NCBI GenBank assembly: GCA_964016885.1
Contig: OZ024743.1
Span: 199,702,001 to 199,766,000 of the forward strand
DNA: 64,000 nt
Source of the DNA: Eledone cirrhosa
Lineage: Eukaryota
Direction of reading: 5' to 3'
A program made the position numbers and the translations under genes. Below are positions 16,295 through 56,165 of this stretch, piece after piece. The notes under the pieces were generated by a model, which did not search any database, had not been told where the DNA came from, and saw only the letters and a list, made by a program, of their open reading frames with translations. How positions within the stretch are numbered: the stretch's first letter is position 1; each line of letters opens with the position of its first letter.

Positions 16295-18087
16295 TATATA
16301 TATATATATATATATATATATATATATATATATATATATATATATATATATATATATATATATATATATATATATATATATATGTATATATATATATATA
16401 TCTTCTTCGTCCACTTATTCTTAAGAAGTCGTTGGAGGCATACACACACACACACACACACACACACACACACATATATATATATTTTGAGTATATGTTG
16501 GTTGTGTACCAACACCTCAGTATGCAGATTGGAGCACCCGACGAAGTGCGCAGGTTGGTTTGGTTACTCCGGAGTAATGTAAAATAAAATAAAATAAAAT
16601 AAATAAGTCAAATGTTTAAAATTTGGCTTCGTTTATTACTGCTATATATATTTCGGTGACAGCCATCTTTGGCTGTGACCTCTTCAGGCAGTCCGAATTA
16701 GTGTGGTAGAGACGAGTACACATGTTGTTGAGGTGTATAACTTTGTCAATACTCTGATATGCCCAGTTCCTGGTTGGGTTGTTATTTCATTGAGGAACTG
16801 GAATCCTATGAATTTAAACAAACGAATTTCAGTGTCAGAGGACATCTTCTCCTCTCATTGGTCAGTTGTGAGAACATTCCTCAATCAAAAGTCTATAGAA
16901 ATTCATTCTGAGGCAAGGCAATCTGTAGTGGTTTTTCCTTGTTATTGCTAAGTACATCTGACCTCTACTCTTATGTTGGTAGTGGTGTTGATGTTAGAAT
17001 CAGCTAAAAAAATGATAAAATGGTAGAAGGAATAAGGTGGTAGAGGAACCAAATAAATAATCAAATAAAATGTGTGTGTGTTATACCCAATCTCAATGTT
17101 ATAAAAATTTGTAAGGTCACTCAACCCATTGTTCAGTTTTGGAGCATTCCTCAGTGAAAAGTCTATAGAAATTATTTCTGAGGTTAGGTTCTCTGTAGTG
17201 TTTGTTTCTGCTATTGTTAGGTACATCTGACCTCTACCCTTAATTTGGTAGTGTTGTTGGTGTTGTGTTCAGCCCATATCTTGCTGCTGCTGACATTTAT
17301 AAGTATCTGTGTGTTTCTTCATCCATCCTGCCACCATCTCTCGTGGTGGTGGTGGTGGTGGTGTCTGCCATGTTTATGAAGAAATAGAAGGCAATAAGAT
17401 GAAGAAAACAGAAAATAAATAATTGTTTCTACTTTTGGCACAAGGCCAGCAATTACCCAGTGTATTACTGGTACAAATAATGAATAGAAAATAAATGAAA
17501 AATGAATTGATGAAAAATGACAAATGACAAATGTAAAATGAAATGGAAATTGAAAAATGTAAAATGAAATATGAAAATGAAAAGTGGAAAATAGAAGTGA
17601 AGATTCAAATAAAGTAAAATGTGTGTGTTCTATAACCAATCTCAAGGTCAGAAAGATGTGGGATAAAGTGGTAGGAGGAACAAGATGGTAAAAGAATAAA
17701 ACGAAATAAGATAATTAAATAAAAAGTGTGTGTGTTATGACCATTCTCAACTTAAATATCAGGCATAAATATAAGGCAATAAGGTGAAGAAAACAAAACA
17801 AATGAAAAATCAATGAAAAATCAATGAAAAATCAATGAAAAATCAAGTAAAATAAAATGTGTGTGTGTTATAAAGATGTTGGCCAAATTAGAAAGGCTGT
17901 ATCAGAATCAATCTCTAGGCTATCATGGTGTAAACTCAGCCGGAGTGGGTCCCTATGGCTTGAGGGGAGTTCCCAACCTATGGTGTTGTTACTGCCCATA
18001 TAGCTTGAGGGAGTTCTGGCCGAGAAGTATCTACATGTTCTGGAGAAGTCCCTATAGCTTGAGGGGAGTTCACATCTCAGTGTGTTG

Positions 18088-18405
18088 CTACTGTCCATAT
18101 AGCTTGAGGAAGGTCCCGGCCCTGAGGTGTCTGCATGTCCCGAAGAAGTCGGTTCTGAGGTTTATCAGGCGGCTTCCACCACTTAGTATCTCGAGGGTCT
18201 CGATCAGACATAGTTTGCATATGCCGGATCCGCCTTTATCGGGCGGTACCTTCCTGATTATGAACCAGGCCAGAGAGTACAGGGTCCTGTCCAGCTCCAG
18301 CTTCCAGATGAGGTCGGAGAGAGCCGTACTTTTCCTTTTGGCCTCCTTGTTGAAGGAATGGTGATGGTTATACGAGCGGTCTTTAAAACTCGTTGATGTG
18401 GCTCT
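18088..18405 (-). pseudogene. C-terminal part of a PLE GIY-YIG endonuclease (Naiad-like)
   Basis: TSTSFKDRSYNHHHSF...STALSDLIWKL...CKLCLIE...INLRTDFFGTCRH, homologous to the C-terminus of 53111..54259. Confidence 0.85.
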
Positions 18406-18782
18406 ACCACTGTGGCTCGTTGATGGTTCCTCTACCACCTTATTCCTTCTACCACTTTATCATTTTTTGAGCTGATTCAAACATCAACACTATTACCAAC
18501 ATAAGTGTAGAGGTCAGATGTACTTAGCAATAACAAGGAAAAACCACTACAGATTGCCTTGCCTCAGAATGAATTTCTATAGACTTTTAACTGAGGAATG
18601 TTCTCACAACTGACCAATGAGAGGAGAAGATGTCCTCTGACACTGAAATTCGTTTGTTTAAATTCATATGATTCCAGTTCCTCAATGAAATAACAACCCA
18701 ACCAGGAACTGGGCATATCAGAGTATTGACAAAGTTATACACCTCAACAACATGTGTACTCGTCTCTACCACACTAATTCGG

Positions 18783-18837
18783 ACTGCCTGAAGAGGTCAC
18801 AGCCAAAGATGGCTGTCACCGAAATATATATAGCAGT
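18783..18837 (+). ncRNA. Minimal type I hammerhead ribozyme (element-sense copy at 16638-16692, minus strand)
   Basis: ACTGC-CTGAAGA-GGTCACAGCCA AAGA TGGCTGTCACC-GAAA-TATATA-TA-GCAGT; intact core and all stems. Confidence 0.9.
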
Positions 18838-19414
18838 AATAAACGAAGCCAAATTTTAAACATTTAACTTATTTATTTTATTTTATTTTATATATATATA
18901 TATATATATATATATATATATATATATGTGTGTGTGTGTGTGTGTGTGTGTGTGTGTGTGTGTGTGTGTGTGTGTGTGTGTGTGTGTGTGTGCATGTGTA
19001 TGTATGTATGTATGTATGTATGTATGTATGTATGTATGTATGTATGTATGTATGTATCTATAACTATCTAAACACACACACGCTCACACAAATACACATG
19101 TGTCCATAATTGCCTTCCCTCATATTCTTATGTGCTTGTTTAAATGAAGTATAGACACTGTCACGTTTTGAACAAGTTCATCTTGCCTGCCCTCTCTTCT
19201 GCTCTAGTCATCACCAGAACCTCAGAGGTTCCGGAAATAGACTGGACTGTGGTAAGAGTGCAATATGTCTAGACAGTCACACTACACCGCATACGCAATT
19301 TGAGAAGTGGTAGCAGAGGATTAAGCCGACTCCTGGTGCTATAGCTTATCCATGGCGAAAGATAAAAGGTAAAGTTGACCTCGATGGGATTTGAACTCAG
19401 AACGTAAACAACCG

Positions 19415-53218: not shown

Positions 53219-54259
53219 AATAAAAACATCTTTGATGCTAACGCCAATTACTATAATAACGCACTTTCTAAAGCCGGCTATCCAGATAAAATCAAATATA
53301 ATAAAGAAACAAATTCTAGGAAAACTTACAGTAGAATATTTAATCATAACCATTCCAATAATTTTAATAAAAGACCTAGATACAAAAACATAATCTGGTA
53401 TAATGCTCCTTTCTCCATCTCTATTAATAACAATATTCCTAAATTATTTTTTAGTGCCTTAAATAAATGCTTCCCTCCCTCACATATCTATAGTAAAATA
53501 TTTAACAAACACACCATCAAATTTTCGTATTCTACATCCTCCAATATTTCCAACATCATCTCTAAACACAACAACAAAATATTAAATACTAAATCTCTTC
53601 CTTCCAATATTGAATTTCATAATAACAGTAATAGTACTCCTGACGTCATTGTAAACCCTAGGCTAACTTCTGTAAACCCAAATGCAACGTCAAACACAAC
53701 TTCGCTAAATGTTCATAATCCAACTCTAAATCAAGAAACTATTATTCCTATTATTCCTATCGCAAACAACTTCTCCAATCCAATTCCTTCTATAGATAAC
53801 ACTAGATCACTCATTAATAATCTCTCTAATTGCAACTGCCGCATTAAAAATAAATGTCCTCTCAACAACCATTGCCTCGATAAAAACTTAATTTATGAAT
53901 GTAAAATTATAACTAGCACCAATTCCTTCACCTATTTTGGCTCCACTTCCACCTCTTTTAAAGCTCGTCTCTATAATCATCATTCATCTTTCAAATACAA
54001 ACTTAAAAGAACTAACACTGCTCTCTCAGAACTCATATGGTCCTTAAAAGACAAAAACATTAAATATAACATCTTTTGGAAAAAGATTTCTTCTGCATCC
54101 TCATACTTGAACAGCTCTCTATCTAAAATCTGTAATCTCTGCCTAAATGAAAAATTTACCATTATCTCTAACCTAGAATCCATAATAAATAGACGCTCAG
54201 ATTTGTTTTCTATCTGCCTGCATAAATTCCATAGAACTTTTCACAAAGTATACAGTTAA
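53219..54259 (+). pseudogene. PLE ORF C-terminal half: RT thumb/linker, CxC zinc motif, GIY-YIG endonuclease
   Basis: IIWYNAPFS...KIFNKHTIKFSYS; CNCRIKNKCPLNNHCL; LIYEC...TYFGST...FKARLYNH; CNLCLNEK...INRRSD...CLH; open frame but RT core missing. Confidence 0.9.
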
Positions 54260-54316
54260 TATTCAATTCTTTATCAATTTAGAATCTTTTCTCAAAGGCA
54301 CATATACATACACCTC

Positions 54317-54760
54317 TTTAAAATATACCCATCTACCTTACTTTAAAGGGCATTATACACTCTATAATACTCGTTTACTCATTACCCTCATTCTATCTTC
54401 TCGTAAAACAATAACATTTGTTTTTGACATTTTGAATATTCATCCGCAATCATTATTATTTTTTCTCTCTATCATAAATCTTTTTAATCTCAATTTCATC
54501 CTTAATTTATTATTATATTTTTTTTTTTTTTTTTCTTAATATATACTCATATATTCTTTAAAATATACCCATCTACCTTACTTTAAAGGGCATTATACAC
54601 TCTATAATACTCGTTTACTCATTACCCTCATTCTATCTCCTCGTAAAACAATAACATTTGTTTTTGACATTTTGAGTATTCATCCGCAATCATTATTATT
54701 TTTTCTCTCTATCATAAATCTTTTTAATCTCAATTTCATCCTTAATTTATTATTATTTTT
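54317..54760 (+). repeat. About 240-bp-period direct duplication in the PLE 3'UTR; second, diverged pair at about 54950-55100 / 55185-55320
   Basis: CTTTAAAATATACCCATCTACC...TTATTATT present twice. Confidence 0.9.
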
Positions 54761-56165
54761 TTCTCCCCATCAACGAACTCATTATTAATACATATGAATT
54801 CAATATACAAACTTTAACTTCACATTATTTTTCTCAAATCCTTCTACACATAAACTTTTTCTCTTTGCTAATTTTAAAATTCCTACATTTCTTCTTTTGA
54901 CGTTAGAATATTCACCCACAATTATTATTTTTTTCTCTCTATCTTCATACATAATTTCCCTTCGTTAATTTTCAAATTCCTTTAATTTATACATTATCTT
55001 CCAACGGTTCCCAACCTCTCTATATTAAAACATTATATCTTTTTCTCAGTTATAAAAACTATCTCTTTCTCTCTATCACCCATCTCTCCCTTTCCACCTT
55101 CACTCTCATCTCCTCCCCTTTTTTTCATCCTTTCCAACCCCCCCCCCCTCCCTAAATATAATATATTTTTTCCTCGCACATATCCTCCCTTCGTTAATTT
55201 TCAAAATTTTTAATTTATACAGTATCTTCCAACGGTTTTCAACCCCTCTATATAAAATATATCTCCTCTCAGTTATAAAAACTATCTCTTTCTCTCTATC
55301 ACCCATCTCTCCCTCTCATCTCCTTCCCTTTTCATCCTTTTCTCTCCCCCCCCTCTCTAAATAAAATATTTTTCCCAATATCACACATCAATCTAAAACC
55401 ACTTTTCATATGTTGATTTAAAACTGCACTATCAACAAGTGTTTTTTTAGCCTTCATATCATGTTCTCCTGTTTTATCTGATGAAAACACAAATATTATT
55501 GCTTGATGATGTTTGTTTTTGAAATGCGCATAATAAAATATATTGAACTCCTTTAACCATCTTTTGATCTTATATTATATATATATATATATATATATAT
55601 ATTAGAAAGTGAAATTTTTTTTACAAAATGAAAAATAACCGAGGTGTCCTACACGAGTGAACGTATAAAGAAAGTATAAAGAAAGTATAAAGAAAAAAGG
55701 GGGGGGGGACCCCCCCTCTTATTTGAAGAACTATTGTAACGCGAACTGGCGCGAAATTTATTATAATTATTGACAAACCAATCAAATTACTTCTCGAAAA
55801 ACCTGGCATTTCGAGCCACTTTTTCCATATAAAACAAGTAACATTCAGAGACCAACCAGATGTGAGAAAAACCACAGACCCTCCATCTCAACTCACCTTT
55901 TGAAAAGCAGAAGAACTGCGAAACCGGTAAAGGAACCAAATAAATATATATATTTTAAAAAAAAATAAGACTCCAGTTGCATTTTCGATTTCATCTCTTT
56001 TTCTATATATATATATATATATATATATATATATATATATATATATATATATATATATATATATATGTATGTATGTATGTAAAAGGTAAACAGAAATAAC
56101 AACACAATCGGTACAGTATATGGAATGAATATATTAGGTTAACGCTTGAAATAGAAGGAAGAGGG

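Follow-up and report, generated by a model that had tools for sequence, protein, structure and literature searches.

One-tailed head-to-head insertions of Hydra-clade Penelope-like elements in Eledone cirrhosa may arise by twin priming from two hairpin modules

The general features of Penelope-like element (PLE) insertions, as described by Craig et al. 2021 (PMC8557442), include a 5'-truncated copy in inverted orientation and a tail that may be at either end, and both PMC8557442 and PMC3846280 state that the tail can lie at either side. How the inverted arms and the one-sided tail originate is named as an open question in PMC8557442. Here we analyze 64,000 nucleotides (nt) of Eledone cirrhosa DNA (assembly GCA_964016885.1, contig OZ024743.1, positions 199,702,001 to 199,766,000; hereafter the window, numbered from its first letter), which contain two coding PLEs, E1 and E2, and a series of smaller two-armed inserts. 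A preliminary description had noticed that the tail sits on opposite arms of E1 and E2 and had proposed two priming events per insertion. The observation is real but already published, since a one-sided tail and two reverse transcriptase (RT) starts are reported in PMC8557442 and PMC11167929, and the model needs two corrections: both starts fall inside the element, and it appears to be the element that dictates the site.

The only in vitro study found concerns the Anolis carolinensis Poseidon element PAc (Frangieh et al. 2024, PMC11167929), and it leaves the later steps unvalidated. PAc resembles the elements studied here in having two internal RT starts that bound the tail, in the cutting and extension of both target strands and in a predicted dimer. 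Its starts lie in one AC-rich stem loop within the open reading frame (ORF), not homologous to the target, whereas the Hydra-clade starts appear to lie within the 5' untranslated region (UTR), at a TAT before each of two hairpins. Neither a duplicated module nor an inverted-arm model features in the available excerpts of the PAc paper. In Pen2a_Av and related PLEs of Adineta vaga (PMC3846280), which likewise have inverted pseudo-long-terminal repeats (pLTRs), optional one-sided tails and junction palindromes, the structure is attributed to self-priming on an antisense template.

By analogy, the closest mechanism is the twin priming of L1, in which both nicks prime one RNA, the cDNAs join by microcomplementarity and a 5' inversion results (bioRxiv 10.1101/2024.08.27.596794). 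The second L1 site is described there as spurious and variable, with median overlaps of ~22 bp. The L1 arrangement, with a first primer at the poly(A) 3' end and a second at a variable spurious site, was not found here: both sites are fixed and conserved before hairpins and neither coincides with a poly(A) end, the two arms frequently overlap over 50-470 nt, and inserts with two arms are common. A doubled hairpin or a twin-priming model for PLEs was not found in the literature searched, which did not extend to older subscription literature, nor in the available parts of PMC4209133, PMC8969392 and 10.64898/2026.07.22.740005. The words "hairpin" and "stem-loop" occur nowhere in the main text of PMC8557442, although the hairpin is present in that paper's consensus files.

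We propose that the one-tailed, 5'-truncated head-to-head inserts probably arise by programmed twin priming from two TAT-hairpin modules on one RNA, a reading we favor with some reserve. The observations behind it are the architecture of the inserts, the presence of two modules in relatives, the position of insert ends 3-8 nt before each hairpin, and covariation within the hairpin. We are more tentative, and lean slightly the other way, on the wider claim that twin priming could be the main integration route of Hydra-clade PLEs, with a 5' UTR module pair (UAU plus bulged GCUC/GAGCAC) loading two RT-endonucleases and the tail being the module spacing, a defined and reprogrammable cis element that selects the RT start site. 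If true, the twin module would be an RNA signal that positions a telomerase-related RT, would explain many hairpin-shaped scars in TA-rich animal genomes and would supply a rule for annotating the ends of Hydra elements.

E1 and E2 are assigned to the Hydra clade by sequence features that PMC8557442 gives for it: a CxCx5C linker, CxxC and CxH motifs without CCHH, a hammerhead and a (TA)n target. The linker reads CNCRIKNKC in E2 and falls outside the truncated E1. Around a conserved E and N, E2 carries CNLC and CLH and E1 carries CKLC and CRH, and no CCHH motif was found in E2. Both elements show the (TA)n insertion preference of the clade and the pLTR, inverted 5'-truncated copy and optional tail of PLEs in general. 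Pattern search places a putative hammerhead in the pLTR; no hammerhead family was among the best 150 of 258 Rfam matches on the window, which were miRNA-like or due to chance. The C-terminal GIY-YIG endonuclease is recognized through relatives (1585 at E <= 1e-10, aligning over the domain), one of which has a weak GIY-YIG Pfam match (E 0.019). Pfam gave no match on the E1 and E2 protein fragments of the window, where both copies begin downstream of the RT core. That core is seen in the relative P0108, which matches RVT_1 (E 0.0003) and aligns with E2 over its whole length. The full-length relatives P0101 and P0108 both have DKT, with RWK in P0101 and RWR in P0108, and by eye their RT motifs match the published Hydra alignment. 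A word-index protein search found no relative among 483 candidates, an initial metagenome scan with the E2 protein found none among 261 stretches, and an alignment of 40 sequences held no stretch conserved enough to serve as a search query.

The two coding elements display opposite tail placement, as the preliminary description had it, with sense orientation of the arms set by the hammerhead motif in each. In E1 (16485-18891) the tail continues the ORF-bearing arm. This long arm (16485-18423, reverse strand) comprises the end of the ORF, with a GIY-YIG C-terminal fragment holding the CxxC and CxH motifs (18091-18405, reverse strand; 45% identical to the E2 protein over the part common to both), followed by the 3' region, the hammerhead motif (16638-16692, reverse strand) and a unique tail of about 99 nt (16485-16583, reverse strand). 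Inside the tail lies hairpin 1 (16534-16575, reverse strand), ACTC...TC-GGGTGC with a long inner stem, which covaries with the hairpin copy starting at 56405. The short arm (18425-18891, forward strand) has a second hammerhead motif (18783-18837, forward strand) and ends without a tail at TTTTAT, continued by ATAT in (TA)n. The two arms (16584-17051 and 18424-18891) are 97.9% complementary. Their 5'-to-5' junction holds filler made of pieces copied from both arm ends (18402-18425).

E2 (52937-55578) has its tail on the short arm (52937-53218, reverse strand). The tail measures 86 nt (52937-53022, reverse strand) and contains hairpin 1 (52992-53018, reverse strand), ACTC...TA-GAGTGC, 23 nt of which are identical to a hairpin in the relative locus L043. 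Hammerhead motifs lie in the short arm (53061-53131, reverse strand) and in the ORF arm (55470-55540, forward strand). The long, tail-less arm (53218-55578, forward strand) carries the 5'-truncated ORF (53219-54259, forward strand), with the region downstream of the RT core, the CxCx5C linker and GIY-YIG, and ends at CTTATATTAT, followed by ATAT and then (TA)n. The arms (53023-53222 and 55379-55578) are 99% complementary. Another copy of the E2 family, E3 (38730-39155), forms a perfect palindrome in which only the left arm has the tail and the hairpin; its two end points are the same as those of E2, and its center is a native CATATG, a 6-bp palindrome.

Exactly one tail is present in 15 of the 16 resolvable head-to-head inserts of the window. 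These were chosen from 58 inverted pairs and a family search of the window, leaving out pairs of short interspersed elements (SINEs), microsatellite or low-complexity pairs, self-matches of long interspersed elements, duplicate rows, and ambiguous or decayed cases (27400-27530, 30533-31340, 62840-63228 and 57205-57560). Nine of the 15 one-tailed inserts carry a PLE marker, be it an ORF, a hammerhead, a hairpin or a family link to one; the other six (A, F, I, C1, C2 and L) have nothing firm to mark them as PLEs apart from their architecture. Tails range from 33 to 178 nt, compared with 30-40 nt in Craig et al. (PMC8557442). Four inserts are asymmetric, with the tail once on the long arm (E1) and three times on the short arm (E2; N1, 55602-56003; C1, 30613-30752), and two of these short-arm tails end within ~12 nt of site 1, the end point before hairpin 1. 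In N1 the tail plus ~12 nt form the short arm, and a long tail-less arm carries a hammerhead variant; in C1 the tail by itself is fused to a tail-less arm, and the two do not overlap. The existence of short-arm tails and the E1 filler drawn from both ends bear out the earlier proposal that each target strand primes once and that the two copies are joined 5'-to-5', as do the cutting and extension of both strands by PAc (PMC11167929). Templated filler is a sign of microhomology-mediated joining of free ends. The E1 filler and the repeated filler at the centers of N2 and F fit such a joining of two free ends.

Independent copies came from 80 loci, drawn from 551 confirmed relatives on metagenome contigs. 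What is new in them is a predicted 5' UTR with two copies of a TAT followed by a bulged GCTC...GAGCAC hairpin. The hammerhead core occurs in 56 loci, 44 of them with enough downstream sequence to score; the hairpin follows the core in 24/44, compared with 56 of 1774 background windows. Of these 24 loci, 8 have a second copy further on, and in 7 of the 8 the ORF start lies behind that copy. Counted from the other side, two strict copies stand upstream of 14 of 20 ORF starts; in L001, L008, L035 and L069 the first copy is cut or variant, or the locus starts between the two copies. The two hairpins are 57-74 nt apart.

The hairpin also shows covariation. Inner pair 1 forms in all 41 unique hairpins (29 C-G, 12 T-A; shuffle mean 32.5) and needs a 2-nt bulge, as bulges of 0, 1 and 3 nt allow it in 0, 0 and 4 of 41. 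Inner pairs 2 and 3 form in 27/41 and 29/41, with shuffle means of 17.4 and 16.2. TAT stands just upstream of 21/25 first and 15/16 second hairpins; by locus, it precedes the hairpin in 19 of 22, compared with 1-5 of 22 in five other windows. Single-sequence folding of eight tails gave weak signals (z +0.5 to -2.0), and Rfam on five module-bearing loci returned one chance match only. The first (TA)4 run after the core comes at 42-66 nt in seven loci without the motif and at 102-127 nt in nine loci with the motif or a variant; it lies at 40-43 nt in two loci, where the run is native, and at 170 nt in two.

The ends of the inserts fall at the modules. In 8 of 10 comparisons the divergence at a tail-less end begins 3-7 nt ahead of hairpin 1; for E1 and L073, where an upstream substitution halted the comparison, the ends lie by eye ~8 and 3 nt ahead of it. 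Four of five comparisons put the tailed end 3-8 nt ahead of hairpin 2, one of the four being a contig end, and the fifth is uninformative. Both classes of ORF arm occur within one family (L066 and L070 versus L069; L060 versus L073; L019 versus L025). The inverted arm reaches across the ORF in only two of the 80 loci, L058 and L042, and L058 repeats the layout of E1. Among published consensuses, Hydra-1_Ajap begins with two hairpins and ends at CAACATATATT, and Hydra-2_Amil and Hydra-2_Ajap have one hairpin at the end. A relaxed scan of the window gave 10 matches, against a shuffle mean of 0.75; the six with inner stems of at least four pairs belong to the tails of E1, of the E1 relative at 56405, and of E2, E3, M and J. 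The outer pair of the window hairpins is A-T, not G-C. The tails in the window contained no ORF start.

Some relatives show further arrangements of these sites. L069 holds a unit-length copy from site 1 to site 1 (973-3356) and L035 one from about site 2 to site 2 (2338-4900), with (TA)n at the 5' end; such copies could stem from templates that are circular or tandem, or from collapse in the assembly. In L036 (2338-2400) and L040 (1464-1518) two tails lie tail-to-tail across a short TA run, which suggests insertion into the end of an earlier copy.

Pairing with the target can be followed at the tail-less ends, for which the preliminary description had named three TA-rich motifs. All three are located in the window, TATATTAT at 55571 and 39148, CAATAT at 12143, 30617 and 31228, and CTCCTAT at 38251, but their exact overlap with (TA)n is shorter than the motifs (3 nt for TATATTAT, 4 or 7 nt for CAATAT, 3 nt for CTCCTAT). 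Across ten families the overlap measures 7, 0, 1, 2-3, 4, 3-4, 4, 0-3, 3 and 1-4 nt, which sums to 25-33 nt where 9.4 are expected (P 0.0008 to 0.000003); with the strongest family left out, the sum is 18-26 and the expectation 8.4 (P 0.013 to 0.0002). Insert D was outside this test because its target is not (TA)n. Internal priming by TA microhomology, as first proposed, holds only in part: the overlap exceeds chance but spans just 0-7 nt, with 0 and 1 nt in two families. E2 also has a longer TA run 40 nt upstream, and this run does not appear among the main end classes listed from reads. It appears to be the element that determines the priming site and TA pairing that sets the register. The other half of the early model, one start at the RNA 3' end, is not supported: in relatives the sequence continues past the tail end to the second hairpin and the ORF start, so that both RT starts are internal to the repeat unit.

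In the proposed pathway, one element RNA would present two modules, each holding one RT-endonuclease. The ...TA-3' end of each nicked target strand would pair with the UAU just 5' of a hairpin and be extended. The copy started at module 2 would take in hairpin 1 and give the tailed arm, and the copy started at module 1 would give the tail-less arm. The module-2 copy might stall near site 1, leaving tail-only arms, or displace the other copy and continue. Short homology would then link the two cDNA 3' ends and leave templated filler; as either of the copies may be the longer, the tail could fall on either arm. One RNA carrying two modules would account for exactly one tail in nearly every pair, and we infer the use of a single RNA from this one-tail rule together with the tail-only arms.

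Several observations weigh against this proposal. In PAc (PMC11167929) the start site is the same for both strands and not homologous to the target, and twin priming for Hydra elements is a likely proposal drawn from sequence. The relative loci are akin and derive from assemblies that are collapsed, which makes the shuffle P values overstate how independent the loci are. In L068 a single hairpin stands before the ORF, L066 has no strict match, and L042 apparently carries the tail end on both arms, a counter-example. Hairpin 2 was not seen in the window, and the reads leave out the tail-end region. The hairpin scan of the window found none in families A, C, D, F, G and N, which may belong to other clades, and the match in I and L is weak or absent. 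The one ambiguous insert of the 16 (13846-14203) is possibly tail-less.

A single cDNA primed at the tail end might instead fold back, copy itself and join the other target end at a TA microhomology, with later lopsided deletions giving the asymmetry. For the 11 of 15 inserts that are near-symmetric palindromes with spacers of 0-80 nt, this is the simpler explanation and so also a point against twin priming; arms 98-100% identical in A, C2, E1, E2 and E3, the TA overlap above chance and the self-priming proposed in PMC3846280 agree with it. Yet folding back does not explain the second module, nor why, in distant families, the tail-less end is fixed at a point right before a conserved hairpin, and it needs a second event for copies with the tail on the short arm. 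Three insert centers have no loop, and the native 6-bp palindrome of E3 cannot hairpin on itself (12 such palindromes in 573 positions). We consider this route unlikely. Alternatively, the hairpins might be DNA signals, with the GIY-YIG nuclease cutting a DNA intermediate at the TA beside each and resolving one tailed and one tail-less end. The TAT does resemble the target; PMC8557442 ascribes the tail to endonuclease-mediated resolution, and PMC11167929 has the tail of the D. virilis element needed for nuclease recognition. However, the same source places the PAc tail ends at RT start sites on RNA, and the G-T wobble pairs kept in E1 suit the sense strand, though weakly. We consider resolution of DNA improbable.

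Priming of the two strands on two separate RNAs, with each enzyme choosing either site, would spare the strand displacement that overlapping arms otherwise call for, and would accommodate both the two-tailed look of L042 and the 10 of 467 positions at which the E1 arms differ. A free choice predicts two tails or none in half of the pairs, however, and the count of one tail in 15 of 16 makes this quite improbable. Least credible, and very unlikely, is the preliminary description taken literally, with one start at the true RNA 3' end and the other wherever TA microhomology permits. It is consistent with the excess of TA overlap and with tail ends constant within families, but it is contradicted by the hairpin 2 found past the tail end in 8/24 loci with the ORF start behind it in 7/8, by overlaps of 0 and 1 nt, and by D, which is one-tailed in a non-TA target. 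Twin priming from two modules on one RNA remains the reading we prefer.

Sequencing reads offer a further view of E2. They were compared over 52900-54314, with the tail-end region outside the comparison, and the figures refer to the loose-end classes listed; class 53026 was left out for its mixed consensus, as were runs X3 and X10 for their small share. The largest class listed in both raw runs leads from 53023 into (TA)n (263 and 229 reads). From the reads, the E2 junction falls at 53218, where the exact overlap is 1 nt. Most reads have an A at 53021, which would lengthen the E2 TA match to 8 nt with one G-T wobble. A strand-change joint at 53030/53158 is carried by 12 and 9 reads, one contig joins the tail to the ORF (52969 to 53483), and further joints connect 53190 to 53933 and 53222 to 54187. 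The ratio of tail to pLTR depth was dropped as a test, the raw runs being restriction-site-associated DNA (RAD) libraries with ~80% versus 9% by read direction; contig depth was likewise dropped as a measure of copy number (695k versus 1457k in X4, 64 versus 219 in X1).

The coding elements have additional features of their own. Six of the ten E1 arm differences gather in the 81 nt adjoining the junction (18425-18505), and E1 has degenerate internal repeats. In E2 an asparagine-rich insert of ~80 amino acids (53620-53830) lies between the RT-proximal region and the endonuclease; it is missing from most relatives and recalls the N-rich inserts of A. vaga PLEs. The E2 3' region (54315-54762) holds a 208-bp direct duplication (98.6%) and further 80% repeats.

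The remaining two-armed inserts are mostly one-tailed palindromes. The tail is on the left in A (11775-12151; 33 nt), C2 (30813-31232) and N2 (56925-57163), and on the right, with hairpin 1, in M (38248-38438), which has a relative, J, at 25245-25331. F (14363-15822), also with its tail on the left, has D and a SINE nested inside and no TA overlap at its tail-less end. D itself (14618-15506) carries a hammerhead and was inserted into a non-TA target, with 9 bp duplicated. Its center (15051-15135) repeats the first 22 nt of D's own tail end, has in addition a 64-nt piece that begins at an internal TA run, and looks as if RT had restarted at its preferred sites. G (15841-16294) has a hammerhead, I (23871-25016) a SINE inside, and L (34142-34316) diverged arms. 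The hammerhead-like motif of N1 (55893-55935) has the core pair U3-A8 in place of C3-G8. Single-arm inserts also occur: 56303-56590 (reverse strand), the tailed relative of E1 with hairpin 1 and no inverted partner, 34922-35025, likewise tailed, and 23042-23230, with a hammerhead.

Outside the PLEs, two tandem copies of a two-ORF non-LTR retrotransposon, frameshifted and with endonuclease-like and RT regions, occupy 39953-51308, and a reverse-strand fragment lies near 33240-33741. A SINE-like family has many copies (640-850, 14426-14597, 24372-24560, 37014-37410, 47428-47614, 52000-52194 and 60219-60412), two of them nested within PLE palindromes, and a 60-bp piece lies in E1 at 17415-17474. 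Near-perfect minisatellites are found at 19414-19989 (23 bp x 25) and 30071-30270 (18 bp x 11).

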